From the IMG/VR virus record IMGVR_UViG_3300025018_002594, positions 1 to 35,229 of that record: a stretch of 35,229 nt of DNA. One strand, 5' to 3'. The notes under the pieces are model-generated. The model ran no database searches, was not told where the DNA came from, and worked only from the letters and a program-made list of their open reading frames with translations. This DNA comes from a virus (Duplodnaviria; Caudoviricetes). The translations under genes and the position numbers were made by a program. Every line of letters starts with the position of its first letter. Positions within the stretch are counted from its first letter, which is position 1. Below, one piece after another: positions 4,574 through 28,167 of this stretch.

Positions 4574-4903
4574 ATGACCCCACCGAAACGCAGACAGACA
4601 GACGCGGAAGACGACGTGCGTGAGTGTGCGAGCCTCTGGAAAAGGATAGCGATATGGGCGACGACCGCGCTGGTAGCAACCGGCGGCGGCATCGGCGGGT
4701 ATCGCGCTCTCGACACGCACAGCATCCAGCAAAACGCAACGGGAAGCGCACAGGCCGCCGCATTCGACGCTGGCCGCGTGCAACTAGATCGAGCAATAGC
4801 GGACATATCTGAGTTGAACGTCAAGATGGAGAAAGTTCAAACCGCGATAGCCCGTATTGAGGGCAACGTCGCCTACCTCGTGCGTGAGGGTGCGGGCCGA
4901 TGA
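4574..4903 (+). CDS. Small membrane protein with coiled coil (holin/XhlA-like candidate)
   Basis: One hydrophobic segment (IAIWATTALVATGGGIGGY) then a coiled coil (ISELNVKMEKVQTAIARIEG). AGGAGG RBS. Stop overlaps the endolysin start (ATGA). Confidence 0.5.
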   Translation: MTPPKRRQTDAEDDVRECASLWKRIAIWATTALVATGGGIGGYRALDTHSIQQNATGSAQAAAFDAGRVQLDRAIADISELNVKMEKVQTAIARIEGNVAYLVREGAGR

Positions 4904-9760: not shown

Positions 9761-9860
9761 TATTACTCATAACGTGCCTGAATAAACGCGCATTTCATTG
9801 GGGTTCTAAATAATGCGTTGACGTAAACCATTGATATATAAGGGGTTATAACTATTTTAT

Positions 9861-9897
9861 TTTTTTGTTGCAATTTTGCAGCAATATAATGTACAAT
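9861..9897 (+). promoter_or_regulatory. Putative sigma70-type early promoter
   Basis: AT-rich tract with TATAAT at 9885-9890, and TTGCAA (9868-9873) 18 nt before TACAAT (9892-9897). Immediately upstream of the long non-coding structured region. Confidence 0.55.
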
Positions 9898-9912
9898 TAG
9901 GTATAGAACATT

Positions 9913-10700
9913 TGAACCGTACCTGCTAACAAGCGCAGGACAAGGCGTGCAACAAACGGCCCGGGATGACATGACGCGCATCGAGCGCGAAGAGACTCCC
10001 CGAAAAGCGGTGGCGAAGATAAACGATGTTGCGCACAGAGCCGATAGGCCGATAACACGGATCACATCGTGACTTGGGAAAGTGATAATAATTGAATCGA
10101 ATAGCCACCCCGCAATAGCGGCGGGGTAAAACGCACAACGCAAACGCGTAGCGGCAGACAGATATTGTATGCAGCGCGGAAACGAAATGCGGGCGGCATA
10201 TACGTAGCGGGGAAACCTTTACATACATTCACACGCGGGGCGACGAAGCGGACCGGGTGATGAAAGCAACGTATATGATAAGCACACGGCAACCCTCACC
10301 TACAAATCACGGCAAAGCAAATCATGGCTTGCACGTGCTCGATGCAGAAGCGACTTGAGTTTGTCGCCGACGCTTCATATGTAATTCGGCCCTGGAAGGC
10401 TACAGCGTTTGGTTATGCAAACGCCGTGAACAAATCTCTGCATTGTATGCAGGTACGATTCACACGGCGACGCGCACAACGCAAACGACGCCAAGAAATC
10501 CGATAGCGTATGAATCCAATCGTTAGGCTCTGATGAAATGCACTAAGTGCGAAAAGATGGAGCTTACACGCCATAGCGTGGCGATTTGAAATTGAACATG
10601 TAGCGCGAACGAATGCACGTTGAGTGCGAACAAATGCGCAGCGGTCAAGCAAAGATTTCCTGATGTAGCGTCAAATGCGAAAGCGTTTGGATGTTGAGGA
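9913..10700 (+). ncRNA. Candidate large structured non-coding RNA or leader (class not recognised)
   Basis: No ORF with an RBS. Long-range helices 9913-9926/10449-10462 (13/14 bp), 9978-9989/10334-10345 (12 bp), 10197-10208/10266-10277 (11/12 bp), plus many local hairpins. Confidence 0.55.
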
Positions 10701-10703
10701 CAC

Positions 10704-10794
10704 CTTTCGAGAAATCGAAACACGCGGCTGGTTTATCCGCCGCGTGTCGTTGCACGGTGGCTCGTGCAACCTGATGATGATAGCCAATCGAAAG
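10704..10794 (+). ncRNA. Type II hammerhead ribozyme with pseudoknot; predicted cleavage after C10748 (GUC)
   Basis: GAAA 10717-10720; stem III cacgcggc/gccgcgtg; UC 10747-10748; stem I gttgcacg/cgtgcaac with loop gtggct; CUGAUGA 10771-10777 plus one extra U; stem II atc/gat extended by ctttcga/tcgaaag; loop-I TGGCT pairs with AGCCA 10782-10786. Confidence 0.88.
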
Positions 10795-10817
10795 AACACA
10801 ACCCAAAGGACAGAGCA

Positions 10818-11132
10818 ATGAAAACGCAAATGCAAACATGGTACGTGACAGTTGAGAATGATGACACCAATAAACTCGAATCAGTTCACGCATTCAGTAC
10901 GAATGCAGCGGCAGGATGTTTTGTTGAGCATGTGCGTAAATCGAATGCTAACGAGAGCCGCAGTACCGCATATCATGCGGAAGTGAAGAGCGGACGTTGC
11001 TACCAAGTTGCCTGTCACGCAAATGGAAAGGGTAAGCAACTCGTAACGTTGAACGTTGTGCTTGATCGAATGACTCTTGTTGGTGATAACAAGCGTCATT
11101 ATTATGGCATCAAGTTTGTTGACCATCGTTAA
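10818..11132 (+). CDS. Hypothetical early protein
   Basis: ATG at 10818 with AAGGACAG RBS, directly downstream of the hammerhead. Confidence 0.7.
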   Translation: MKTQMQTWYVTVENDDTNKLESVHAFSTNAAAGCFVEHVRKSNANESRSTAYHAEVKSGRCYQVACHANGKGKQLVTLNVVLDRMTLVGDNKRHYYGIKFVDHR

Positions 11133-11185
11133 ATCAAATCGAACACAATCGAATACAAACGAAACCCAAACGAGAGGATAGAACA

Positions 11186-11539
11186 ATGAAACTCAGCAAA
11201 ATGTACGATGACGGACAAGAAGAATACGTGGATGACGACAGCGCTGCGGCGCTCGAATCACTACCTGAAAGCGCCTGGGCGCACATCGTAGAGGCCGGCA
11301 AGGCCCTGACGCGCGGCGGCGATAGCCCCGGGATCGACTTTCAAGTCGTCACAACCCGCGAAACGATTGAGAATTTCCTAGACGCCAGACGGTCTTGGAA
11401 TGAAATGGGCCGCCGCGTGGATTGGCAAGAAACCCCCCGCGTAATCATCTTCGAGGATATGCAAGCCCTTAAAGGTCAGTGGCGGGCGTCTATTGCAGTT
11501 ATCGACTTCGGCGACGTGCGCGCCGTGTTGACGGTATAA
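11186..11539 (+). CDS. Hypothetical early protein
   Basis: 117 aa with CGAGAGGATAG RBS. Confidence 0.75.
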   Translation: MKLSKMYDDGQEEYVDDDSAAALESLPESAWAHIVEAGKALTRGGDSPGIDFQVVTTRETIENFLDARRSWNEMGRRVDWQETPRVIIFEDMQALKGQWRASIAVIDFGDVRAVLTV

Positions 11540-11644: not shown

Positions 11645-11670
11645 ACAACCCGAAACGAGAGGACACGATC

Positions 11671-11895
11671 ATGATAGCAATTACACATATTACGCTCGAT
11701 AAAGAAGGGCGCACGCGGTATGGCACCATTCATATCAATGGTGTTAACACCAAGGGGTCGATTACGTATTATGCAGATCGTTCTTACGATATCACACCCG
11801 CATGGTTGGAGCAGCGCGCTATCAATCTTGCCGGTGGCAAAGGTGCGTTTCGCCGCGCGTTAAACGAAGCAATGACTCAGGAGCACGTATCATGA
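11671..11895 (+). CDS. Hypothetical early protein
   Basis: ATG at 11671 with CGAGAGGACA RBS. Confidence 0.7.
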   Translation: MIAITHITLDKEGRTRYGTIHINGVNTKGSITYYADRSYDITPAWLEQRAINLAGGKGAFRRALNEAMTQEHVS

Positions 11896-12424: not shown

Positions 12425-12457
12425 GTTTGAACACAATCCAAAGAGGACACGAATCAA

Positions 12458-13702
12458 ATGAAAAATAAAGTCAAAAAGCAAACGGCAACACTCACTAGCC
12501 CGGTGTTACTTAAGCGCGTGAACAAAGTCTTGGGTACATTGCGCAAGCACAGTATCGAGCAGGACGACTTGCTCGAAACGCTCATGCTCGCAACGCTCAC
12601 GAAGGAGCATGTAATATTCATTGGCCCGTGGGGCGTCAACAAAACCGCGACCATCGAGAATTTCATGCACTTAATTGGGGCCAACGGTGATTTGTTTAGC
12701 ATCACCATCGACAACACGACGCAGCCCGAAGCGTTGCTCGGGCCGTATGCGCCGCGTGAACTGATTGAGAACAATCGGTACATCCGCAACATTGAAGGCT
12801 CGATACTGCAAAGCCGATATGCGTTCATTGGTGAAGTGTTCAATGGCAACGCCGCCACACGGCACGCGTTGCACCGTGTGCTTAATGAGCGCAAGTTTGA
12901 AAACGGCGGTAGCACCTTTGATATTCCATTGCAGTCGGCGTTCTTCGATAGCAATCAGTATCCTGCTCGAAAAGAAGACAAACCGTTCTACGATCGCATT
13001 CTATTTCGTGCGGCGGTGTGGCCCACGCAAAACGTTGAAACGTTGCAGCGCATCTTGCATTGTTCGCTCATGGTGCGTGACGTAAAAGTGACGCCAACGT
13101 TATTGAATGCGCAAATGCTGCGGGTTATTCGTAAACTTATTGCAACGACCGTGACCATGACGGAGATTGCTGAGCAAGAGTTCTTGAGTCTGTTCGTTAA
13201 GTTGCAGGCCAAAGATATTGCATTGTCGCCACGCCGTTGGTATAAAGCGTTTCACGCGTTGCCAACGATTGCATGGTTGGATGGCTGCGATTGTGTTGAG
13301 CCTTGCCATTTACTTGGTTTACGCCATATTCTTTGGGATAACGCATCTGACATTCCGGTATTGACCAATATCCTTGAGTCGTATCGCGGTATGACACTCG
13401 TTGCAAAAGAAAAAGCCAGCCTGAAAGAGGGCGTGTTGATTCTTGAAAGTATTCTCGGCGGGCGTAATCTCGATGATGTATCTGATGTGACTACGCTTTC
13501 GCGCGGCGAATACGATGCAACGATGGCCAGCCTGCAAAACATTCGTACTACGCTTATTACGAGTGAATCGATTGCCGAGTTGGATGGCATTATGGCGCGC
13601 GCCCAAAAAATCTTGCAAGCGCGTAAGTCCTCAGACGTGGATTCGTTTTTTGATACCACGTTCAAGGATGGCCCGCCTGCCGATGACAAAGGCGACCAAT
13701 GA
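12458..13702 (+). CDS. MoxR-family AAA+ ATPase (RavA-like)
   Basis: Walker A GPWGVNKT, 'TQPEALLGP', Walker B-position 'AFIGEVF', 'LNERKFENG', 'DSNQ', 'FYDR'. Followed by a VWA gene. Confidence 0.85.
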   Translation: MKNKVKKQTATLTSPVLLKRVNKVLGTLRKHSIEQDDLLETLMLATLTKEHVIFIGPWGVNKTATIENFMHLIGANGDLFSITIDNTTQPEALLGPYAPRELIENNRYIRNIEGSILQSRYAFIGEVFNGNAATRHALHRVLNERKFENGGSTFDIPLQSAFFDSNQYPARKEDKPFYDRILFRAAVWPTQNVETLQRILHCSLMVRDVKVTPTLLNAQMLRVIRKLIATTVTMTEIAEQEFLSLFVKLQAKDIALSPRRWYKAFHALPTIAWLDGCDCVEPCHLLGLRHILWDNASDIPVLTNILESYRGMTLVAKEKASLKEGVLILESILGGRNLDDVSDVTTLSRGEYDATMASLQNIRTTLITSESIAELDGIMARAQKILQARKSSDVDSFFDTTFKDGPPADDKGDQ

Positions 13703-13716
13703 TATATAATTTATAC

Positions 13717-13784
13717 TGAGTGCGTGCGCTTCATTGGAGCGTCGCGATTTGTTTACATACTGTAGCGTGAAGCGCACGCACTCA
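13717..13784. repeat. 17-bp perfect inverted repeat between the AAA+ and VWA genes
   Basis: tgagtgcgtgcgcttca (13717-13733) / tgaagcgcacgcactca (13768-13784), 34-nt spacer. Confidence 0.85.
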
Positions 13785-13829
13785 TTACCGAAACACAATT
13801 CAACACAACACAACCGAGAGGACACTATT

Positions 13830-16229
13830 ATGAACACAGATAAAAAAGCAACGCGACATGTTGCCAAATATTTTGGGCGCGACCTTACGCGAGCGCTTAT
13901 TACCAGCGGGTGCGGTACGAAACGCGTCAGCGTAGATACGTACGAAATGCCAACCGTCTCGCGTAAAGGGAAACTTAATTTCCATACTACGCGGGATGTG
14001 CCACGCGTATTGTACGAATCGTTTTCAAGTATACCATATCAGTCACAATTTTTTGATCGTATGATTGATGCGGTACTCTTGCGGACGCCTCAGTACCGCT
14101 CGGTCACAATGCAGTTAACGCAACGCGCTTATAACGCAATGGACGCTGCGATAGATGATGCGCAACACCATGCACATTTCGACGTTGATGTGGTAACGCG
14201 GCATTTTCTTTGCGTTGATCATGTGACCAGCGGCACGGGCTGCATGTTTACTTTGTTCCCCGATGTTGTGCGCTTGCTCTATTGGGGCATTCCGACGTTA
14301 CATACTCGTACGGCAGCGGGTAAAATGCTTGACGCTATATATAGCAATAAGGACTTCGCCGACTTGCATGCGAAGACGAAGTATAATTTAATGGCGTCGC
14401 TCGCGGCGGCATACGATTTACTCACTCAACAGATGCAAACAATCTATGAGAACAATACGCTCACGGATGTTATTGAACAAACTGCCGCAAAAGAAGCAGC
14501 ACAACAAGCGCAAGCGCAATCGCAAGCATCACAATCGCAAGCATCACAAGCGCAGTCTAAATCACAAGCGCAAGCACGCGCAATAGATAGCAGCGTAATG
14601 AATGATGCGCAAGGCGTCGCTCAATATGCCGATAAGTTGCAAGCCAAGATGCAACATCAATCATCCGATAGTGTAACTGTGACGCGTCGGTGCAAGGATT
14701 TAAGCGCTAAACTCACCGAGGCACAGCGCAGCGCATTTGCACAACAACTTGATTCGATGGATGTAAATGATGCAACGTCCGGAGAAAGTGGTGGTGGTGG
14801 TGCGCATTATGATTCCAACTCGGCAACGTTTGACTTTGATGCGTCGCAATCACAACAACAAGCCACCGGGCAAAGCGGTGCGGGTACATCCGCAAGCGCA
14901 CAACAACCGCATTCCGTATCGGATTGTTTTGCGACCATTAAGACATTCGCGAAATTGTCCGCCATACATAATAAGCATAACACAACATCCGTAATGATCG
15001 AACATATCGATGCGCAAGGCAACAAGCACAATATTCGTACGCTCGCGCTTGCAAATGGTGCGCGCTTCATCGATGCACTCGATACAGACGGCATGCACGG
15101 GGATGCCTATCGCTACGCAACATCGTCTAGCGTACATGCAATCGATGCCACGTTGGAAGTGATGGGAGCGCTCGATGCCGGTTATCGTGCAATCGAATCC
15201 GAAACGTCATTTGGGAATGGTGCATACGCAGACATGACACTTGGCAGTAATATTCACAAAGTCCCCGCCAGCATGTTGCACACGGTATACGCTAAGGAGT
15301 TTCAACCGATGTTATATACGCGGTTAGCCGAGGGCATGCTACCCAACGTGCAACACATTTCGCAATCAGACAAAGGGCACGGGCCGGTAATTATTTGTGC
15401 CGACCTGAGTGGCAGTACCGCCGAGCCAATTTGTTCGGGACATGCGCACGAAGTAGGTGAGCATAATGCAATATACAATGTGCCGCGCATCGCACTTATT
15501 AAGGCGCTTGCATTGTTGTTCTATCGCAAGTTGCGCGCCGACGGACGCACGGTTATCTTGCTGCCATTTACCAATCAGCCCTTGCGCTATATGGAGGTTA
15601 TCGCAACCGATTCAAGCGTGCTCAAGCAATCGTTGGCCGAACGCAAACGCAGGCTCGCATTGTTCTTGTCCGCTAATCCAAACGGCGGTACATCTTTTAA
15701 TAATGTGCTGTATCGCGTGACCGGATTGCTTACCAATTTTCAGGAGGAGAATACATTAAACGGTGCGGATGTCATTTACATCACCGACGGCGATTGTAGT
15801 TCGTCCACGCGCAAGCATGTGCTGCACGATGTACAACAAGCGCACGCCAATGTGCGTAGCGTATTCAACAAGGACATGGGTAGTGTGTTTGACGCACCAG
15901 CATATAAGTTCGCCGGTGTGTTGCCGCAGTTTCAGAAAGACATTGTGTTGCCCGACAACACGCGCATCTACGGCGTGCTCGTTGCGCCCGATGCGTTTTA
16001 CGGCGTACCGCAATCCCCTAATTATGATAAGATGCGCGGCAATTGGGTATTCCCATCCGTGCATTGGCCGAAGCATGGTGAAACGGATGCGCCTTGTATT
16101 TTCGATTGTGTAGCCGAACTCGGTTATACTTCTGAGTCTACATTGGCGGGGTTGCGCATGCTGTACGAAGAAATTCTTAAGCGCAGCGTGTACGATTTCG
16201 AAGACACCGATAGTTACGTTACGTTGTAG
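13830..16229 (+). CDS. VWA-domain protein (ViaA-like partner of the MoxR ATPase)
   Basis: MIDAS 'IICADLSGS', 'NGGTSF', 'DVIYITDG'. Q/A/S-rich linker containing a 15-bp tandem repeat at 14517-14546. ATG at 13830 with CGAGAGGACA RBS. Confidence 0.85.
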   Translation: MNTDKKATRHVAKYFGRDLTRALITSGCGTKRVSVDTYEMPTVSRKGKLNFHTTRDVPRVLYESFSSIPYQSQFFDRMIDAVLLRTPQYRSVTMQLTQRAYNAMDAAIDDAQHHAHFDVDVVTRHFLCVDHVTSGTGCMFTLFPDVVRLLYWGIPTLHTRTAAGKMLDAIYSNKDFADLHAKTKYNLMASLAAAYDLLTQQMQTIYENNTLTDVIEQTAAKEAAQQAQAQSQASQSQASQAQSKSQAQARAIDSSVMNDAQGVAQYADKLQAKMQHQSSDSVTVTRRCKDLSAKLTEAQRSAFAQQLDSMDVNDATSGESGGGGAHYDSNSATFDFDASQSQQQATGQSGAGTSASAQQPHSVSDCFATIKTFAKLSAIHNKHNTTSVMIEHIDAQGNKHNIRTLALANGARFIDALDTDGMHGDAYRYATSSSVHAIDATLEVMGALDAGYRAIESETSFGNGAYADMTLGSNIHKVPASMLHTVYAKEFQPMLYTRLAEGMLPNVQHISQSDKGHGPVIICADLSGSTAEPICSGHAHEVGEHNAIYNVPRIALIKALALLFYRKLRADGRTVILLPFTNQPLRYMEVIATDSSVLKQSLAERKRRLALFLSANPNGGTSFNNVLYRVTGLLTNFQEENTLNGADVIYITDGDCSSSTRKHVLHDVQQAHANVRSVFNKDMGSVFDAPAYKFAGVLPQFQKDIVLPDNTRIYGVLVAPDAFYGVPQSPNYDKMRGNWVFPSVHWPKHGETDAPCIFDCVAELGYTSESTLAGLRMLYEEILKRSVYDFEDTDSYVTL

Positions 16230-16255
16230 CGCATAACGCATGTCAAACAAGTTGG

Positions 16256-16355
16256 TGATAGTATAACGGCGTGATGGGCGTGTGGCTCATGATGCGATGT
16301 GATTAGCGCGCGGGCGTTGTTGCTTGCTGTCCTCTCGCAACGACACTCGCTTTCA
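16256..16355 (+). ncRNA. Candidate small RNA or leader with an anti-RBS loop (UGUCCUCUC)
   Basis: Extended -10-like TG-A-TAGTAT (16256-16264); hairpin 16310-16323/16337-16350 (13/14 bp) followed by ttt; loop is the reverse complement of the recurrent GAGAGGACA RBS. Confidence 0.5.
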
Positions 16356-16375
16356 ATTGAATGGAGTGAAATGCA

Positions 16376-17998
16376 ATGCAGTACCAGTTTGCATTCGACG
16401 ATTTGTGTTCCGTCGCAAATGCGTACGAGCGTGCGCAAGTGCCGAGCACTCCTGACAAACGAAAGCGCTACAAACTTCCGTCGGGCTTCACGCCCATCAC
16501 TCCGTTGTATTATCACCAGCTTGTTGGTGTGCATCGCTTGATATGCAATGCGCAATATGGTTTGTTTGACGAGCCGGGTCTCGGCAAGACTTTGCAGTTG
16601 ATGTACGCGGTATATGAGTTGCAACAGACGCGGCGCATCGAGCGCACAATAATTATTTGCAAAGCGTCACATGCGTACACATGGCAGACGCAATTGCAAA
16701 CACACCTTCCGTCTTGTACCGTGCATTCGCTCGTAGGCAAGACGCCTGTGCAACGCATATACAATGATACCGCCGACTTCACGATAGTCAATTATGAGTT
16801 GTTGCAACGTACCGGTAAGCACTACAGTCCGCCGTTACGCGTACCATGGAGCCATCAAACATTGCGCTATAGCGAAGACGTTGCGCGATTGATTGCATAC
16901 GCGACTAAGTACAAGTGTGCCGTTGTATGTGATGAATCGCAGTACATCAAGAGCATGCGCGCCAATATTACGCGTACGCTGTGTGCGCTCGCTCCATTGT
17001 TTACGCGCCGGTATATTGCAACGGGTACGCCCATTTCCGAGCGGCCTGATGACGCGTGGTCGCAGGTATTCTTTCTCGATAGCGGCAAGCTGTTTGGCAC
17101 GTCATATCTTTCGTTTCTGCGCAATCACGCAGACCTGATTCAGACGCAGTACGGTTTGAAAGTTATTCGGTATAAAAATATGCAGTCATTGCACAAGCGC
17201 CTGCGCATGATAAGCGTACGTCGTCTCAAGGATGATTGCCTAGATTTACCACCTAAGTTAGTGCGTGATGTTCCAATGCTTGCCGACGCGACGCACGAGC
17301 GCGTGATGCAACGATATCGTGATGCGTTGTTGACCGCGTTGCATGTGTACAAGGGCAACACCATTACGCCGCAAAAGAACAGTAACATCTCGCAAGCATT
17401 GCAAGACATTCAAGTCGCGGCGGCGATGCCGTGTTTGCTTGACGCGCAATGTGAGCGCAAACACAATACCAAGTACCAGCGTTTGCTCGATGACTTGCAC
17501 GATATGAACGGCGCATATTTGATTGTGTGGTGCGTGCATGTAACGGTTGCCAAAAGGCTCACGCAATTCTTGCAACAAGACGGCATTAACGTTGCCTGTA
17601 TATATGGCGATGTTGCGCACACCGAGCGCGCACGTATTATTGAAGCCTTTCAATCAGGCACCGGTGTGCAAGTGCTTGTGGCAACGCAAGCGTCATTGCG
17701 CGAGAACGTTACGCTCACGCGTGCCAAGCGTGCGGTGTATTATGAATTGGATTGGGCGCTTACAAATTGGGTGCAGTCGCAAGACCGCATTCACAGAATT
17801 GATGCACAATCCGCATCGGGTACTGCACAAACCACCGAGCACATTTTGCTCGATGTGTTCTTGCTCAGGCAATCGCTAGACGAGTATATGTTCTCGGTCA
17901 TTCAAGCTAAGCAACTTGTTGCGCAGTCTGTGACCGATGGCGGACGACACAAGCAAGCATTGACCAAGCTTAAACTTATTCGTGCGCTGCGATGGTAG
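16376..17998 (+). CDS. SNF2-family (SF2) helicase
   Basis: Motif I DEPGLGKT, 'IVNYELL', motif II CDESQ, motif III ATGTP, motif VI 'QSQDRIHRI'. Confidence 0.9.
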   Translation: MQYQFAFDDLCSVANAYERAQVPSTPDKRKRYKLPSGFTPITPLYYHQLVGVHRLICNAQYGLFDEPGLGKTLQLMYAVYELQQTRRIERTIIICKASHAYTWQTQLQTHLPSCTVHSLVGKTPVQRIYNDTADFTIVNYELLQRTGKHYSPPLRVPWSHQTLRYSEDVARLIAYATKYKCAVVCDESQYIKSMRANITRTLCALAPLFTRRYIATGTPISERPDDAWSQVFFLDSGKLFGTSYLSFLRNHADLIQTQYGLKVIRYKNMQSLHKRLRMISVRRLKDDCLDLPPKLVRDVPMLADATHERVMQRYRDALLTALHVYKGNTITPQKNSNISQALQDIQVAAAMPCLLDAQCERKHNTKYQRLLDDLHDMNGAYLIVWCVHVTVAKRLTQFLQQDGINVACIYGDVAHTERARIIEAFQSGTGVQVLVATQASLRENVTLTRAKRAVYYELDWALTNWVQSQDRIHRIDAQSASGTAQTTEHILLDVFLLRQSLDEYMFSVIQAKQLVAQSVTDGGRHKQALTKLKLIRALRW

Positions 17999-18026
17999 TG
18001 GCGCACATAACCGAGAGGACAAACCC

Positions 18027-18752
18027 ATGAAGCAAAAAGATTATCTCGCCAACGCATTCGAGCAAGTGCGGACTGATTCAGCAGAAACGTTAAAAGCGCT
18101 GCATTGCAAAGACGGACGCGTGCTCGGTATCGTACCTTGGTGCGGCTCAATACTGGTATATACCGACGCCGACGCGTTGCAGCAGAACATTCCTACCGCG
18201 TTCAAGCATCGCGTGTTGGATGCATCCGCCGATGGCTCGGTGGATTGGGTGCGCGTATTGCAGACGCGTGCCAACGCTGTAGTCAATACGCCGGTGAAGC
18301 CTGAGCATTGCATTGTGGTCAATCGTAAAGCATTGCTCGATATCCTCAACGCATGTGAGCACGATGTTGTGCAGTTGGAATGCTTGTCCGATGTTTTCAG
18401 TAGCACCGATACGCCGGTTGCAATCGCAGCCACGCGTGAAACGTTGGCACTCGTACAAAAGTATATGCACAATGGGCAAAGCGTTGTCTATATGCAAGAC
18501 GCATTGTGCATTACCGACGGCGCGGGTGCCGATACCGACGATGGTATCATTGTGCAACTCGGCGCGGTGCGCGTAGTGCGGCCTGTGATGCCGTTGCGTA
18601 TTGCATTTGCGCAGACTAAACCTAAGCAAAAGAAAACTGCGAAGGCAAAACTCAAACTCAAAAAGAAAGGAACGGCTATCGCAAACGTAATCATGCCCGC
18701 AACAAAATCAAATGCAACGAGCATGCGCGACAGGCTCAAACAACTCAAATGA
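18027..18752 (+). CDS. Hypothetical protein with Lys-rich C-terminus; weak resemblance to sliding-clamp (beta) folds
   Basis: ATG at 18027 with CGAGAGGACA RBS. 'IVVNRKALLDIL' and 'VMPLRI' recall beta-clamp segments but this is weak. Confidence 0.6.
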   Translation: MKQKDYLANAFEQVRTDSAETLKALHCKDGRVLGIVPWCGSILVYTDADALQQNIPTAFKHRVLDASADGSVDWVRVLQTRANAVVNTPVKPEHCIVVNRKALLDILNACEHDVVQLECLSDVFSSTDTPVAIAATRETLALVQKYMHNGQSVVYMQDALCITDGAGADTDDGIIVQLGAVRVVRPVMPLRIAFAQTKPKQKKTAKAKLKLKKKGTAIANVIMPATKSNATSMRDRLKQLK

Positions 18753-19075: not shown

Positions 19076-20218
19076 ATGGCCAAGAAAGCAAACACCCCCA
19101 AGATTGACCGCACGCAAGTGGTCGCGCTCATCAAAATGTGGAACACTGATAATGAGTTTGTTCCAGCGGATAAGTATTTTGCCAAGGCGTTGAAGAATGC
19201 CGACGTGGATGCGCTTGTCGCGGAACTCAAAGCGAAGATGGTTGCGGCTATCAATGCGAAGTCGTACGCCGATGAACTCAGCGATGAGCTGTATGTGTTC
19301 ATGGATTCCAATGGCGTCGCGGACGAAGTCGATGACGTTGAAGACGCGGACGAAGACGCCGACGAAGATGATGATGATAAGGTACTTGACGGCGGCGATG
19401 AAGATTCCGATGACGAAGATGCGGACGAAGACGGCGATGAGGATTCTGAGGAAGATGCGGATGCGGATGACGAAGAAGAGACCGCCGACGATGACAACGA
19501 AAACACCGATGACGATACCGAAGACGCCGACGAAGACGAACCGGTTGAAGATGAAGACGAAGACGCCGACGAAGCGGAAGTCGAAGTTGATGCGGATGCG
19601 GATGCGGATGATGATGACGATACAGATAACGATGAAGTCATCGTTGATGCCGCCGACGTTAAGTTGTTGGTCGTAAATAACTCTGACAACGTGGCGCAGG
19701 TGTTGCATATGCTCTGCACGCATCTCGCCAACAACGCAACGCCGGTCAGCGTAACGTTTACGTTCGGTGGCAGCAACGGTAGCGCGCAGCCGAAGCCGCA
19801 ACCGCTACCGCTCACGACGCCAGCGCAGAAACGTATCTGGCAGGGCGACGGCGGCGAGATTGTCAAAGGCAAGCGTACACCGAAGCAGCCAAACAAAGTG
19901 CAAGCGGTTGAGACCACCAGTCGCAGCAAGAAACGCGACAAACAAGCCGCGCGTACCGTTGCGAACAAATCGGTATCCACCGGCAAGCCGTTCGATACCG
20001 ATAAGGCGAAGGCCATTATCAAAAAGATTCGGCGCAGCAAAGACCCTATTGCAACGTTTCAGAAGATGTGTTTGGCCCGTGGCGAATTGCATACGATGGA
20101 ACCGCGTGTCGAAGTAATGCGGCTTCTGAAACTGAAACCGCGTAAGTCTGACTCGAAGAAGTCGTCTGCGTTTGCAATCAAGACGTGGATTGAAGAGAAG
20201 GTGCTTGTCGAAAAGTAA
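19076..20218 (+). CDS. Hypothetical protein with a very long Asp/Glu tract and basic C-terminal domain
   Basis: ATG at 19076 after AAGGAG; roughly 100 residues dominated by D/E (about 19320-19640); K/R-rich C-terminus. Confidence 0.8.
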   Translation: MAKKANTPKIDRTQVVALIKMWNTDNEFVPADKYFAKALKNADVDALVAELKAKMVAAINAKSYADELSDELYVFMDSNGVADEVDDVEDADEDADEDDDDKVLDGGDEDSDDEDADEDGDEDSEEDADADDEEETADDDNENTDDDTEDADEDEPVEDEDEDADEAEVEVDADADADDDDDTDNDEVIVDAADVKLLVVNNSDNVAQVLHMLCTHLANNATPVSVTFTFGGSNGSAQPKPQPLPLTTPAQKRIWQGDGGEIVKGKRTPKQPNKVQAVETTSRSKKRDKQAARTVANKSVSTGKPFDTDKAKAIIKKIRRSKDPIATFQKMCLARGELHTMEPRVEVMRLLKLKPRKSDSKKSSAFAIKTWIEEKVLVEK

Positions 20219-20970: not shown

Positions 20971-21008
20971 TGCGCATGCTGTGCGCATAACGCAGAGAGG
21001 ACGGTGAA

Positions 21009-23657
21009 ATGAAAACGGATTGCGTAACACGCCCTGAGTGCATTGCCTGTGCGCTGCATACGCAATGCCGTTCAGAAGCGATGAACGGTTACGGCAATGA
21101 AGCGCAAGGCGGCATTTTAATTATTGGTGATGCACCGAACGACCGAGACGACTTCAAGGGCCAACCGTTCAACGGCAAAGCGGCAGACCTGTTGCGGCGT
21201 ACGCTCAAGCGATACCGTGTGGACATGACGCGTGTGCGCTACACAAACGCGTTGCGATGCAAGCCGCCAGAAAACAAAGCGCCGAGCGTGAAACAAATCA
21301 ATGCGTGCCGTGACCTGCTTGTGCGAGAGATTGATGACTACACGCCTGAGTATATTCTCTTGCTCGGCAATACGCCCTTGCGTGCAGTGCTCAAAAAAGC
21401 AGGCATTACGAAGCAACGGCGTACGGTCTTCGCATACACCACACCGCAAGGAACAGCTTGCAAGGTCATTGCAGCGTTTCATCCGGGCCACGTCATGAAG
21501 CAACAAAACGAACTGAAACGCTTTGAAGGTGACATTAAATTTTTTGCAGACGTTGTGACTAATACGCATACGCACATCGGGAAGTTGTGCAAGCACATCA
21601 ACGCGCAGCCCACTGCAAAGCAATTGCTTGCGTGGTACACATCGCTTAAATATAAACCGCGTCCGGTTGCGTTTGACGTGGAGACCACTTCGTTGTATCC
21701 GCATCTCGAACACGATAGCATGGCTTTATTGTGTTTGGGTTTGAGCGACGGTAAGAAAACATTTGTGATTCGCTGGCAAAGCCTGCGCTCTGAGAAGGTA
21801 GATCGCAAGACCGTGTATATGGTGGACAACGCAACACGCAACAATGCGGCGATGGATGTTGCGCGTATGATTCTCGCAGACCCATGCGTGCCGAAGATTG
21901 CGCACAACGCAAAATATGATTTGCATTGCTTGCAGGTGTTACTCGGCATCCGCGTTGAGCCGGTTGTTTGCGATACGTTGTTGTTGCATGCGTTGTTGTT
22001 TCCGCAAGAAGGCGGGCATGACTTGTCTACCGTCGCTTGCGACCTGCTCAAGATTGATGACTACGCAAAGATGCTTGCACCGTATGTGGGTGACGGGTAC
22101 AACTCAAAAGCATATGGGAAAATTCCGTACAAAAAACTCGCACGGTATAACGCTTACGATATCGTTGCAACGCATGCGATTTATGTTCGCTTGTTGCGGC
22201 GACTCGTACGCATGGACAAGCAACACGTTGAAAAGAAATCACTCGGTGTGTTGCCAAGCGTGTTATTCGACAAACTTATCATGCGTGCGATGTATACGTT
22301 GTACGATGCGGAGTTGTTGGGCTTCACGGTGGATCGCGAACATTTAGAAGGACAGCACGGTGTCGGGGCTGCGCTCAGTACGCGCTTGCTCAAACTGCAA
22401 CGCATTGTTAATAGCAACAATCATGTGAAGGCATACAACGCACGGCACACCGCAGAGGTCATCATGACTATTGCGCAACGCAAGCGTGCGCCTGCGGACC
22501 ATGTGCGTGCGCGCATGCTCAACGATTGTTTGTTCAACCTCAACAGCGATGACAACGTACGCGAGTTGTTATTCACTGCGCCGTATTTTGCGTACACCAT
22601 TCCAGACGATATGCCGAAGACCGATGGTGGGCAAACAAGCGTAAGCGCAAGTGCATTGGAATTGCTCAAGCAATCATTGCCACCACGCGCCAACACGCTT
22701 ATGCTCGATACGTTGATTGAGCACAGCGCATTGCATCAGCGTTATACAACATTCATTGCAGGGCTTGCGCAACGCATTGCACGCGACGGACGCGTGCATG
22801 CCAACTTCAATCTCGGCGTCACGCGTACTGGTAGATTGTCATCGAGCAAACCCAATCTGCAAAACATTCCGCGTGAGAAAGAATTCAGAAATATATTCAC
22901 TGCCAGCGACGGCATGCAGTTGGTCAAAGCGGATTATTCACAAATCGAACTGCGTGTGCTCGCGGTCGTGGCACGCGACGAGAATATGATTGATATCTTT
23001 CAGAGCGGTCGCGACTTTCATGCCGAGACTGCGCGGCGCGTGTTTAATATTCCAAACGATGCAGAGGTGTCTAAAGAACTACGGTCGCGCGCAAAAGGCG
23101 TCAACTTTGGTGTGGCGTATGGCGAAGGTGCATACGGTCTCGCGCGTAACATCGGCATCACGCTTGAGCAGGCCGAAGAGTTTATCACAGCATACTACTC
23201 ATTGTTTCACGGATTGCACGCATGGCAGGAGAAAACAAAAGCGTTCGTACGCATGCACGGCTACGTGCAATCCATCTTCGGCAGGCGGCGCATGATTGCA
23301 AACGCAACCATTAAACCATATGCACAACCGGATTGGCGCAAGTTGGTAGGTGCCGCGTATCGCATGGCGGTAAACACGCCGATACAGAGCGCGGCAAGCG
23401 ATATGTGTTTGTGCAGCGCAAACGCATTGGCAAAACGTTTCACCGTACTCAAACTCGATGCGCGTGTGTTGTCTATCGTGCATGATGAAATTATTACCGA
23501 GTGCGCCGACGCATTAGTGCCGCGTGTTGCGGATTTGATACGAATGACCATGACGCGCGAGCCGCTGCGTTGGGTTGGTAAATGGTTCACGGATGTGCCT
23601 ATCATTGTGGACGTGGAAGGAGGCAAATCATGGGGCAGTACGCTGCCAATTATTTAA
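21009..23657 (+). CDS. polA: Family A DNA polymerase with N-terminal uracil-DNA glycosylase-like domain and 3'-5' exonuclease
   Basis: UDG family-4-like 'CIAC..GDAPN..GQPF.GKA..TNALRCKP..FHP'; Exo I 'FDVET', Exo II 'HNAKYD', Exo III 'YNAYD'; 'TRTGRLSS..PNLQNIP'; motif A 'DYSQIELR'; motif B 'RSRAKGVNFGVAYG'; motif C 'VHDE'. Confidence 0.95.
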   Translation: MKTDCVTRPECIACALHTQCRSEAMNGYGNEAQGGILIIGDAPNDRDDFKGQPFNGKAADLLRRTLKRYRVDMTRVRYTNALRCKPPENKAPSVKQINACRDLLVREIDDYTPEYILLLGNTPLRAVLKKAGITKQRRTVFAYTTPQGTACKVIAAFHPGHVMKQQNELKRFEGDIKFFADVVTNTHTHIGKLCKHINAQPTAKQLLAWYTSLKYKPRPVAFDVETTSLYPHLEHDSMALLCLGLSDGKKTFVIRWQSLRSEKVDRKTVYMVDNATRNNAAMDVARMILADPCVPKIAHNAKYDLHCLQVLLGIRVEPVVCDTLLLHALLFPQEGGHDLSTVACDLLKIDDYAKMLAPYVGDGYNSKAYGKIPYKKLARYNAYDIVATHAIYVRLLRRLVRMDKQHVEKKSLGVLPSVLFDKLIMRAMYTLYDAELLGFTVDREHLEGQHGVGAALSTRLLKLQRIVNSNNHVKAYNARHTAEVIMTIAQRKRAPADHVRARMLNDCLFNLNSDDNVRELLFTAPYFAYTIPDDMPKTDGGQTSVSASALELLKQSLPPRANTLMLDTLIEHSALHQRYTTFIAGLAQRIARDGRVHANFNLGVTRTGRLSSSKPNLQNIPREKEFRNIFTASDGMQLVKADYSQIELRVLAVVARDENMIDIFQSGRDFHAETARRVFNIPNDAEVSKELRSRAKGVNFGVAYGEGAYGLARNIGITLEQAEEFITAYYSLFHGLHAWQEKTKAFVRMHGYVQSIFGRRRMIANATIKPYAQPDWRKLVGAAYRMAVNTPIQSAASDMCLCSANALAKRFTVLKLDARVLSIVHDEIITECADALVPRVADLIRMTMTREPLRWVGKWFTDVPIIVDVEGGKSWGSTLPII

Positions 23658-25146: not shown

Positions 25147-26197
25147 CTCCGCAAATAAGACCGCACCTGTCATTGCTAAACTCTTGCGGCGCGGTACAAA
25201 AGAATTTGGCGCGCATGCTATCGGTACGTTAAGCGAAACATCTTCCGTGCGTTGTCTGTCTACCGGTTTGCCTGCGTTGGATATTATTTTGTCCGGCGAC
25301 GGTATCACCGGTACAGACGGCGCAATGCACGGCGGGTTTCCGATGGCTCGCATCAGTGAGTTGTACGGACAGTATTCAAGCGGCAAGACTACGCTTGGTT
25401 GTATGATGCTTGCGAACGTACAAGCGCTCGGTGGCGTGGGCATCGTAATCGATACGGAGTCCACGTTGACCAAGCAACGCGCGGAAGCGTTAGGCGTTGA
25501 TACCGATTCGCTGATTCATATCCGCGAGGAGTACATCGGACCGATCTTTGATCAGATGCGTATGTTGCTCGACGAGATACCAAATGATATGCCGTGCGTT
25601 ATCTTTTGGGATACCATTGCAGCGTCACGTTCCAAGAGCGAAAAAGGTTTCTCGTTGAGCAGTGGCGGGCTGGCACTGCAAGCGCGCGAGTTGTCTGAGG
25701 GCTTGCGGCGCGTTACGCATTGTATTTCGCAAAGTAGCTGTGCGGTCATCGGCTGCAATCAACTCAAGGTCGGTGCGATTGGCGTACCGTTCGCAACAGA
25801 ACGCGATACGGAAAGTACAGCGGGCGGTAACGCCATTAAGTTTTACTCGGCGCGTCGCGTGCGTTTCAAGTATGCAAAGAAGTTCATGCGTACCGTCAAG
25901 ACCAAACAAGTCGCAACCGGATTGGAGGTCCGGGCCACCGTTACAAAAAACAAAGACGGACGCGACGGCTTGCGTTGTACGCTCGTCATGGAAGGTGGTC
26001 GCTACAACATCGCAATGTCTTGCTTGCGCACGCTGCAAGACTTGGGTGCAGTCGGCAAGGGCATGAAGGTCGCGTTCGGTACAGATAACGCAACCATGAG
26101 CGTTGCAGATTACGAAGCGCAATACAATGCCGATGCCGCGTTCCGCAACCGTGTGAACGTCGTACTGCGAACCGCATACAACGGCGTGCATTTATAA
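25136..26197 (+). CDS. recA: RecA/UvsX-like recombinase
   Basis: 'STGLPALDIIL..GGFP..RISELYGQYSSGKTT', 'IDTE', 'WDTIA', 'NQL', 'GGNAIKFYS', 'KNK'. Start uncertain (GTG 25136 or TTG 25124). Confidence 0.92.
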   Translation: MTRNSANKTAPVIAKLLRRGTKEFGAHAIGTLSETSSVRCLSTGLPALDIILSGDGITGTDGAMHGGFPMARISELYGQYSSGKTTLGCMMLANVQALGGVGIVIDTESTLTKQRAEALGVDTDSLIHIREEYIGPIFDQMRMLLDEIPNDMPCVIFWDTIAASRSKSEKGFSLSSGGLALQARELSEGLRRVTHCISQSSCAVIGCNQLKVGAIGVPFATERDTESTAGGNAIKFYSARRVRFKYAKKFMRTVKTKQVATGLEVRATVTKNKDGRDGLRCTLVMEGGRYNIAMSCLRTLQDLGAVGKGMKVAFGTDNATMSVADYEAQYNADAAFRNRVNVVLRTAYNGVHL

Positions 26198-26988: not shown

Positions 26989-28167
26989 ATGGCCAAGCCG
27001 ACACGCTTATTGATAGACGGAAATAATCTCGTGCATCGTGCACACCATGCGCATTGGGGATTGACCGACCCAAAAGGCAAGCCCACGTCTGCGGTGTACG
27101 GTGTATTGTCTACGCTTGTACGGCTGGAACAAATATTCACGCCGGATGTTGTTGTTGTGTTGTTCGATACTATTGCGCCGGTGTGGCGCAAGGCATTGCT
27201 GCCAGAATACAAACAACAGCGCCGTGAACGATTGCTTGCATCGTCTGAAGAACAACAAGACCAAGCTCGGCAATTGCGTGAGATAGAATTTCCGCGTGTG
27301 TTGCGTACCCTGCAACGTTTTGCGGTACCGTGTGTTTCTGTAGAAGGTCTTGAGGCGGATGACTTGATTGCGCTCATCACATCCGAGAACGACGGTACGT
27401 ATGATGACGTTATTGTTTCCAGTGACCGCGACTTGTGGCAATTATGCAAACGATATCGCACACGTGTATTTGATACGCATGCCGAAGCAATGGTTTACAT
27501 CAACAAGCGCGGGCAACTTAAGCACGCACAACGCGGTGTGATTGCAGCATCGTCGCGAGCGTTCACGTTACAGCGTGCGTTCATTGGCGACGTGGGTGAT
27601 AATATCAAAGGCGTACACGGTATCGGCGAAGTTCGTGCGGCGAAGATTGTAGACGATGCGCCCTTGCCGAATGAAAGCACGATGCAGTATCTTAAACGTA
27701 AAGAAACTAATTTGCTTGCGCTCAAGGCGGCGCGTGACCCAAACGATAGCAGTAAAGTGAACAACGAAGTGTACGCGATTATCAAAAAAAATCTGCAACT
27801 CATCAGTCTCGGCAATCCGACATGGTTGAACAGCATCATGCTCGGACTGCATACGCAAGGGGCCATTGATGAATTTATTATACAAAACGACTCGCGCAGC
27901 TATATGCGTATCATCTATAACGAGTGTCAGCAACAATGCGAGATGCTGGCAGATGAACGTATTACGCATGCCGCATATTTGATTCAACGCACACACAAAC
28001 AACGCGCGCTTACACCGTGCGAGACTATTTTTCGCATGTGGGGTTTTCAATGGGCGTTTTCGCCTGTCATGTGTGAAGCAATGCAAAGCACATTTATAAC
28101 GTGGCGCAACCGTGCCCACGCTACTTATAAAACAAAAAGCATACAACTTAAGAGGACAAAAACATGA
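26989..28167 (+). CDS. 5'-3' exonuclease / flap endonuclease (Pol I N-terminal / T4 RNase H-like)
   Basis: 'LLIDGNNLVHRA', 'VLFD', 'WRK..LPEYK', 'EADDLIA', 'SSDRDLWQL', 'GDVGDNIKGVHGIGE'. ATG at 26989 with GGAG RBS. Confidence 0.92.
   Translation: MAKPTRLLIDGNNLVHRAHHAHWGLTDPKGKPTSAVYGVLSTLVRLEQIFTPDVVVVLFDTIAPVWRKALLPEYKQQRRERLLASSEEQQDQARQLREIEFPRVLRTLQRFAVPCVSVEGLEADDLIALITSENDGTYDDVIVSSDRDLWQLCKRYRTRVFDTHAEAMVYINKRGQLKHAQRGVIAASSRAFTLQRAFIGDVGDNIKGVHGIGEVRAAKIVDDAPLPNESTMQYLKRKETNLLALKAARDPNDSSKVNNEVYAIIKKNLQLISLGNPTWLNSIMLGLHTQGAIDEFIIQNDSRSYMRIIYNECQQQCEMLADERITHAAYLIQRTHKQRALTPCETIFRMWGFQWAFSPVMCEAMQSTFITWRNRAHATYKTKSIQLKRTKT

Follow-up and report, generated by a model that had tools for sequence, protein, structure and literature searches.

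Can a single RNA hairpin of a phage address the translation starts of a whole class of the phage's own genes? The question is raised by an intergenic hairpin in a 35,229-base IMG/VR virus record, IMGVR_UViG_3300025018_002594 (below, 'the window', meaning this entire stretch of DNA), which comes from an uncultured groundwater phage and is estimated to cover about one-third of a genome. All plausible genes of the window are on the + strand, as are the features described here. The hairpin (16310-16350) sits in a 146-nt gap between the gene of a 799-aa protein (13830-16229; stop codon 16227-16229) and the gene of an SNF2-type helicase (16376-17998), and its loop is complementary to the ribosome-binding sites (RBSs) of eight genes. 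A first-pass annotation had read the hairpin as a candidate RNA of ~85 nt, discrete and equipped with a promoter and a terminator of its own, and its loop as the match of a tagged RBS class that would make up a regulon. The second idea gained ground in our analysis; the first did not. We think that the loop likely base-pairs with the GAGAGGACA-type RBSs of the eight phage genes, blocking ribosome entry and lowering translation, and assign this reading a probability of roughly 0.55.

The loop and the tagged ribosome-binding sites

The hairpin, designated P2, has the stem 16310-16323/16337-16350 and the 13-nt loop UUGCUGUCCUCUC (16324-16336) in both the minimum free energy and the centroid folds, just as drawn in the first-pass annotation. 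Thirteen of the 14 stem positions are paired (two as G.U), with one C.A mismatch, and CUUUC follows the stem. The loop is predicted to be unpaired, with a probability of 0.71-1.00 per base in four sequence contexts. The hairpin begins 80 nt past the end of the 799-aa gene, and the loop is located 80-107 nt past the stop codon.

The word CGAGAGGACA occurs on the + strand at 11656, 13815 and 18012 only, each time 5-6 nt ahead of an ATG (the starts at 11671, 13830 and 18027). An exact-word search located its reverse complement at 16328-16337 and nowhere else; nine of these ten nucleotides are in the loop, and the tenth (16337) opens the 3′ stem arm. Read on the minus strand, the motif has no ATG, GTG or TTG within 20 nt, in agreement with the earlier remark that no start codon is near it there.

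We compared the loop, taken together with its closing bases, with 34 curated translation-initiation regions, counting Watson-Crick matches and using 25-nt windows as background. A complement of at least 7 nt was present at 8 of the 34 starts (10818, 11186, 11671, 12458, 13830, 18027, 21009 and 28164) and in 1.4% of all 25-nt windows (binomial p 2e-8 for 8/34); among 2000 shuffled loops, 0.55% equalled the performance of the real one. When the whole + strand was scanned by duplex energy, RBSs made up five of the seven best sites. The match between loop and RBSs is far beyond chance.

The complement extends over all 10 nt of CGAGAGGACA ahead of the 799-aa gene (13815-13824; -15.4 kcal/mol), a 74-aa gene starting at 11671 (11656-11665; -16.4 kcal/mol) and a 241-aa gene starting at 18027 (18012-18021). 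It is 8 nt long at AGAGGACA ahead of the gene of a MoxR-like AAA ATPase starting at 12458 (12442-12449) and of a 664-aa gene starting at 28164 (28151-28158), as well as at CGAGAGGA(UAG) ahead of a 117-aa gene starting at 11186 (11171-11178; -16.7 kcal/mol), and 7 nt long at AGGACAG ahead of a 104-aa gene starting at 10818 (10807-10813). Ahead of the DNA polymerase I gene, which starts at 21009, the RBS GAGAGGACGGUGA (20995-21007) has an 8-nt Watson-Crick match, GAGAGGACGGTGA, plus G.U pairs, and forms the best duplex of the window (-20.3 kcal/mol). All these sites, the polymerase site included, had been listed on the first pass, and each was recovered.

Duplexes of the loop with the eight sites range from -11.6 to -20.3 kcal/mol and are stronger than those formed on the same sites by our yardstick, a generic 16S ribosomal RNA tail sequence. 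The tagged RBSs share 4 contiguous nt with this yardstick (6 in one case), whereas the other RBSs of the window (AAAGGAG, GGAGG etc.) have 5-8 nt in common with the yardstick and at most 5 nt with the loop. The proposed division of the genome's RBSs into two classes is borne out by this comparison: the eight sites are a distinct class mirrored by the loop. The forward copies of the motif, (C)GAGAGGACA, keep a constant distance of 5-8 nt to the start codon; among the 8-mers found 2-8 nt ahead of candidate starts in the window, AGAGGACA ranks first in frequency, and CA follows GGA in six of the eight sites. Since this conserved CA would have no partner in a standard tail, the 16S tail of the host would fail to explain the motif. 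A second hairpin, directed at AAGGAG-type RBSs, was also considered and rejected: CTCCTT, TCTCCT, CCTCCT and CTCCTC are all absent from the + strand.

A search with the helicase among metagenome contigs yielded one relative (L015), 84% identical, which covers the hairpin element; viral contigs gave relatives at 23-27% identity only. The consensus fold of the two sequences has 96 pairs. Substitutions affect 49 columns, 26 of them paired; 19 pairs are altered (both partners in seven of them, one partner in 12) without a single pair being broken. The arms of P2 are the most changed part of the fold, with differences at 5/14 and 6/14 positions (11/28 in all); four of its pairs changed on both sides and three on one, every pair being kept or improved. 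The loop differs at 0/13 positions. This pattern supports selection on the sequence of the loop and on the structure of the stem. The only homologous target that the relative covers is the 18027 site. Positions 3774-3784 of the relative retain CCGAGAGGACA ahead of the gene after the helicase, with a spacer different in sequence and length and with different flanks. As neither loop nor RBS has changed, this relative does not show co-variation of the two, which the first-pass annotation had expected among related phages; the expectation holds only in the other phage group described below.

An independent group of ~30-kb phages

A scan for exact words found a 17-mer of the loop in an unrelated phage of 61% G+C (loci L031/L034, equal to L039/L079), and there too it is situated in a 13-nt loop of an intergenic hairpin. 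Among 52 loci with a 15-mer, an open hairpin loop was seen only in the two loci of this phage. We rejected the shared 17-mer as evidence of homology, the match counts being no more than chance.

The group to which this phage belongs is well sampled and comprises 80 loci with capsid identity of 71-100%. Its complete genomes (G001-G003, loci L167-L172) are ~30 kb long and have direct terminal repeats. In order, these phages have a 271-aa gene, then that of the major head protein, a gene for 157-181 aa, hairpin 1, hairpin 2 (terminator-like) and finally a 449-aa gene. The capsid protein has one weak match to a named phage, Myxococcus phage Mx9, and no close named relative. The genes of replication and recombination (Erf-like, exonuclease VIII-like, SSB, primase-helicase) and the structural genes are on opposite strands. 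GUCCUCUC is displayed by the hairpin that follows the capsid genes, and replication/recombination genes, some of them on the other strand, start with GAGAGGACA.

The loop of hairpin 1 carries GUCCUC(UC) in 18/18 distinct haplotypes of capsid identity at least 90%, on a stem that varies by genome. In the same 18/18 haplotypes it is complementary to the RBS of the 271-aa gene over 8-15 nt; the longest match expected by chance is ~5.7 nt (calculated, 113 x 25 nt). The two sides come in matched variants: UGUCCUCUCUC(ACUG) with (CAGU)GAGAGAGGACA, a complement of 15 nt in which an extra UC of the loop meets an extra GA of the RBS; UGUCCUCUCUU with AAGAGAGGACA; and, in six loci, GUGUCCUC with GAGGACAC. 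Own loop/RBS pairs match over 7.18 nt on average versus 5.76 nt for cross pairs, and 0 of 5000 permutations reached the own mean (uncorrected for phylogeny). Among the 26 more distant haplotypes, L164 has a complement of 9 nt; L135 and L136 (7 nt) and L165 (6 nt) have it in the loop with a different pair, UUGCCCU/AGGGCAA. The pair CCCCGAGG/CCUCGGGG of L127 and L128 (8 nt in L127) was not counted, being in a stem and involving a word common in that G+C-rich genome.

A count made without gene calls, of 8-mers located 2-8 nt before an ATG or GTG opening at least 60 codons, put AGAGGACA and GAGAGGAC at the top in G001, with 7 occurrences each, and among the leading words in G002, with 5 each; GAGGACAC was first in G003, where the loop is GUGUCCUC, and AAGGGCAA and AGGGCAAA were among the top words in G005, where the loop has UUGCCC. 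The commonest extended RBS word is, that is to say, the complement of the genome's own loop in G001, G002 and G003, and G005 behaves likewise with AAGGGCAA/UUGCCC. At five starts of G005, distributed over both strands, a CA-rich leader, (A)AGGGCAA(A), precedes ATG by 3-6 nt. All six GAGAGGAC sites in the first 16 kb of G001 have an ATG 2-5 nt downstream and are on the other strand from the capsid operon and the hairpin; the products of the genes so tagged include the Erf-like annealing protein, the exonuclease VIII-like protein and SSB. Targets on the opposite strand cannot share a transcript with the hairpin, therefore some of the pairing would have to be in trans.

The loop/RBS relation recurs in an unrelated group of phages and changes in step between its sub-clades; the regulon idea of the first pass, a tagged RBS class matched by a hairpin loop, was thus met a second time, independently. 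Differences of the tag between clades, such as AAGGGCAA with its matching loop, also argue against an explanation by the 16S tail of the host. Two doubts raised with the original proposal, that the match could be a chance 10-mer or be fully accounted for by the host anti-Shine-Dalgarno sequence, are unlikely to hold in view of the fixed loop, the enrichment at eight sites and the clade-specific tags.

Rfam returned sub-threshold matches only for the hairpin of this group, among them sX13 at 13 bits versus a gathering score of 50. In L135 and L165 we observed GGGCAA ~25 nt past the hairpin, upstream of the next gene (449 aa) and just before its Shine-Dalgarno sequence; in the clade with UUGCCC loops, the loop could also form a local pseudoknot affecting the 449-aa gene.

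The surrounding structure and the competing explanations

The hairpin of the window does not stand alone. The region 16230-16540 folds with -147 kcal/mol (z = -8.2; 0/100 shuffles as stable) and tops 699 overlapping 300-nt windows for stability, with a GC-corrected residual of -5.1 sd. A self-search detected a 37-nt inverted repeat, 16246-16282 versus 16489-16525, 89% complementary, that encloses the hairpin and the helicase start. The consensus fold lengthens this repeat into a helix, P1, with its 5′ arm at 16238-16299 and its 3′ arm at 16479-16532, the latter within the helicase coding sequence (~codons 35-53), where the substitutions of the relative are pair-preserving. P1 is predicted to have ~50 bp with few mismatches; it closes the structure and is retained in the relative with one compensatory change from G-C to A-U and several from G.U to G-C. 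Next to the hairpin, the consensus fold places a domain P3 (16350-16465; inverted repeat I2), in which CUUUC (16350-16354) pairs with GAAAG (16461-16465) and the helicase Shine-Dalgarno sequence GGAGU (16363-16367) pairs with ACUCC (16448-16452). With the Shine-Dalgarno sequence paired and the start codon (16376) inside P3, the helicase start appears to be buried. The + strand structure contains 13 G.U pairs and the minus strand folds 27 kcal/mol worse, therefore the structure belongs to the sense RNA. According to this model, the hairpin is one arm of a conserved ~300-nt mRNA structure, not a free-standing gene.

Such a structure could be nothing but a cis-acting leader: the ~300 nt would control the SNF2-like helicase by hiding its Shine-Dalgarno sequence and start codon and by presenting RNase III with a long duplex, the loop would be kept for a protein or a tertiary contact, and the RBS match would have no function. 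The enclosed start codon, the paired Shine-Dalgarno sequence and the conserved closing helix are what one would expect of a leader, and a similar pairing encloses the start of the 799-aa gene (13598-13618/13861-13881, z -4.4), suggesting a habit of this phage. A leader, however, leaves the exact complementarity of the loop to a motif ahead of eight starts unexplained, and in the other phage group the relation recurs and co-varies though the hairpin there is not in a leader. A local contact of the loop was looked for as well, and a pseudoknot partner within 16230-16540 was rejected, none being found among the 30 best duplex sites. We consider a leader without any role for the RBS match to be unlikely.

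An independent small RNA of ~85 nt would start from an extended -10 promoter near 16256, end at the hairpin with its UUU and act in trans on the tagged RBSs. The -10-like word is indeed present: TGATAGTAT, at 16256-16264, fits TGnTAnnnT and is identical in the relative, and a transcript beginning past it would lack the 5′ arm of P1, leaving the hairpin free. The loop/RBS evidence applies equally to such an RNA. However, no -35 element is seen, the word is absent from the promoter-like sites of the promoter scan, and it lies inside the conserved 5′ arm of P1, where its pairing with conserved helicase codons in the ~50-bp helix explains its conservation. The 3′ end does no better. The stem would be adequate for an intrinsic terminator, but the loop has 13 nt versus the 3-8 nt required; CUUUCAAUUG, after the stem, has three consecutive U only, whereas a U-tract needs at least 5 U in 8; and the hairpin site is absent from the 36 terminator-like sites of the terminator scan. 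The UUU, earlier read as a terminator, instead pairs with GAAAG in the conserved fold. A search for RNA runs carrying the sequence listed none. An RNA gene with its own promoter and terminator appears improbable to us.

Still less credible is an ordinary terminator or mRNA-stabilizing hairpin after the 799-aa gene with a loop match due to chance. Its location 80 nt past a stop codon would suit such a hairpin, and a single reverse-complement copy of a 10-mer in 35 kb has a chance of ~0.03 (calculated as 35,220 / 4^10), with many motifs available to choose from; yet the loop is fixed at 13/13 positions while 11/28 stem positions changed, the loop is too large and a U-tract is missing, and neither the enrichment at eight RBSs nor the recurrence with co-variation in the other group would be expected. 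The least probable of the alternatives, an element of the DNA itself (a 10-bp protein site used in both orientations, or a single-stranded DNA hairpin of a replication origin by the helicase gene), would account for the two orientations of the motif, for the location in a replication module and, given a DNA-binding protein of changed specificity, for the sub-clade switches of both copies, but on the other strand, with its much poorer fold, A.C mismatches would take the place of the 13 G.U pairs, the forward copies keep an RBS-like distance to starts, and the inverted copy is always in a hairpin loop with a co-varying stem.

We return to the pairing of the loop with the tagged RBSs. The exposed 13-nt loop would cover the Shine-Dalgarno region and the spacer, thus reducing initiation. 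The hairpin would act from inside a long mRNA, or once a nuclease has processed that mRNA, and not as a small RNA with a promoter of its own. Because the P1 helix is ~50 bp long, it is a possible substrate of RNase III, whose sites are double-stranded RNA helices of about two turns or more, a length that the predicted P1 has; a cut in P1 could release an RNA of ~200 nt with the hairpin and would also sever the helicase message. Since the hairpin lies within the 799-aa gene's 3′ untranslated region (UTR), and that gene's own RBS is a 10-nt match, pairing within the same molecule is possible beside pairing in trans. A strong sigma-70-like site at 13683-13710 (11/12 matches), just upstream of this gene, would fit a transcription unit from 13717 to ~16355.

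Several observations weigh against this reading. In the window's own lineage there is one relative, with loop and RBS both unchanged. The word scans gave 4 loci for the 17-mer and 52 for the 15-mer, the chance level for the collection. In the ~30-kb group the arrangement is not universal, as ~20 of the 26 distant haplotypes have a complement of 4-7 nt, at chance level; moreover, the cross-genome counts with all candidate starts are noisy and alone insufficient for the AAGGGCAA/UUGCCC clade. A long 16S tail could pair with GAGAGGA at 7 positions, one pair being G.U, and the motif may in part be no more than a Shine-Dalgarno variant. The hairpin is embedded in a structure that alone would regulate the helicase gene, and the loop could serve this structure or a protein instead. 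Finally, the empty search for RNA runs counts here too.

On balance, by the conservation of its fold the anti-RBS hairpin is a real and conserved RNA element, and the pairing of loop with RBS is well supported by the sequence comparisons. That the pairing takes place in the cell, and that repression is its outcome, we infer. One could speculate further about an early-to-late or lysis/lysogeny role; there was no sign of lysogeny genes in the window. It is also conceivable, although we would not yet favor it, that unrelated phages run a tag/anti-tag programme, in which replication and early genes share a private RBS extension, and a hairpin loop is the anti-tag that co-evolves with it and switches these genes off without a protein. 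In the ~30-kb phages the anti-tag would then be placed after the capsid genes and, in the window, in the helicase leader, an assignment just as tentative.

Products of the window include a DnaB-like helicase, a primase, the MoxR-like ATPase, the SNF2-type helicase and DNA polymerase I, along with SSB-like, UvsX-like, exonuclease, RuvC-like and ParB-like proteins, a large terminase and a portal. Named phages gave no blastn match to 13700-18100, and the best tblastn match of the DNA polymerase I to them (28% identity) was in SPO1-like Bacillus phages; a search of viral contigs with this polymerase found no relatives. DNA contigs of four other groundwater runs represent nearly the same phage and have no informative variants; one of them spans 16144-16468 with zero differences from the window.

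The 799-aa protein has no family matches, either in Pfam or in PHROG. Together with the MoxR-like ATPase (Pfam bpMoxR, AAA_5) encoded before it (12458-16229 for the two genes, both with a tagged RBS), it recalls MoxR-vWA systems. Around its start, 13590-13890, we saw a second long-range structure: besides the pairing of 13598-13618 with 13861-13881 (z -4.4), this region has a 20-bp hairpin (13714-13733/13768-13787), and it is located directly 3′ of the region's best sigma-70-like site and ahead of the tagged RBS of 13830. The block of small tagged genes is headed by stretches of 563 nt (9761-10323) and 311 nt (10507-10817) without a plausible gene. Differences among the other groundwater runs cluster at 10762-10825, around the start at 10818, with AGGACAG intact.

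Farther downstream, 19076-20218 encodes a very acidic (D/E-rich) protein, with indels between runs at 19461-19485; in the metagenomic relative, the leader of the acidic-protein gene (4790-4840) has three tandem copies of a 14-nt CA-rich unit followed by an AAAGGAG RBS. The second most stable fold of the window (25180-25520; -145.7 kcal/mol, z -5.4) is in the early part of the UvsX-like gene, directly after the SSB-like gene. As for word usage, the most depleted words on the whole + strand are GATC-containing 5-mers (for example GATCT, 2 observed versus 21.6 expected) and CCAGG (0 versus 8.7), which suggests that Dam/MboI-type and EcoRII/Dcm-type sites are avoided; on the sense strand, a depletion of about two-fold is seen for CCTC and CTCC.

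Comparison with known systems

The principle of an RNA loop pairing with an RBS is already known from c4 RNA, from the icaR 3′ UTR and from small RNAs with C-rich loops. In the c4 antisense RNA of phages P1 and P7, complementary sequences, likely in loops, bind around the RBS of a phage mRNA and block translation (PMC12197685). The element of the window has in common with it that a phage RNA carries a loop sequence complementary to phage RBSs. c4 RNA and its target come from one operon. Unlike c4, which has one target operon and acts in immunity, the window hairpin has eight candidate targets; an Rfam search of 15900-16900 gave no match at E <=10 to c4 (Rfam family RF01695), the only two matches (E 0.18 and 0.48) being to unrelated families, far under their gathering scores.

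In the icaR mRNA of Staphylococcus aureus, the pyrimidine-rich 3′ UTR motif UCCCCUG pairs with the Shine-Dalgarno region, hindering the initiation complex and making a substrate for RNase III (PMC3868564). The arrangement in the window is similar, with a pyrimidine-rich loop in the 3′ UTR of the 799-aa gene complementary over 10 nt to the RBS of that gene (13815-13824), and the hairpin of the other group ends a capsid operon whose first gene has the matching RBS. On the other hand, icaR belongs to a bacterium and its motif has only one target, within its own mRNA, while the phages have several targets, some of them on the opposite strand in the ~30-kb group. Small RNAs with C/U-rich loops (RsaE, RNAIII, sX13 and the CcsR/Cuckoo types) pair a loop seed with purine-rich RBSs of many mRNAs. 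These are host RNAs with short C-rich seeds for generic Shine-Dalgarno sequences; the window loop differs in fitting a private RBS extension of 8-13 nt.

The closest analogue that we are aware of is the start-associated sequence (SAS) of cluster K mycobacteriophages, an extended, conserved motif that has a Shine-Dalgarno core and, in a subset of the non-structural genes, is situated 3-7 bp ahead of the start codon (Pope et al. 2011, PMC3203893). As presented in the portion of that paper used here, SAS is not fully explained by the 16S tail, and nearly all of its copies share one orientation, with a single complementary-strand copy in several genomes; its authors left the function unsettled, with a partner that is 'either RNA or protein'. 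The motif of the window resembles it as an extended RBS tag on a subset of genes (8/34 starts) that exceeds the match to the 16S tail. The sequences are different, (C)GAGAGGACA in the window versus GGGATAGGAGCCC for SAS (PMC3203893), so that we regard the window motif as an analogue, not a member. A further difference is that the single inverted copy of the window is in the loop of a co-varying hairpin, whereas that portion of the paper describes no complement-displaying hairpin for SAS. Our literature search, which did not extend to supplements, found no description of such a phage system of hairpin and RBS tag.

Promoters, sigma factors, anti-terminators and proteins that repress translation are the usual explanation of temporal control in phages. 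If the pairing is real, a hairpin carried on the phage's own messages would address a whole gene class by a private RBS tag, adding a layer of control that is cheap and can evolve readily, and the comparison suggests that this layer of phage gene control may be a general and testable one. Tag and loop are a pair of parts suited to reporters, for which the second phage group supplies natural compensatory variants. By analogy, the inverted copy in the window hairpin suggests what the partner of SAS may be; if true, the start-associated sequences would gain a concrete partner.

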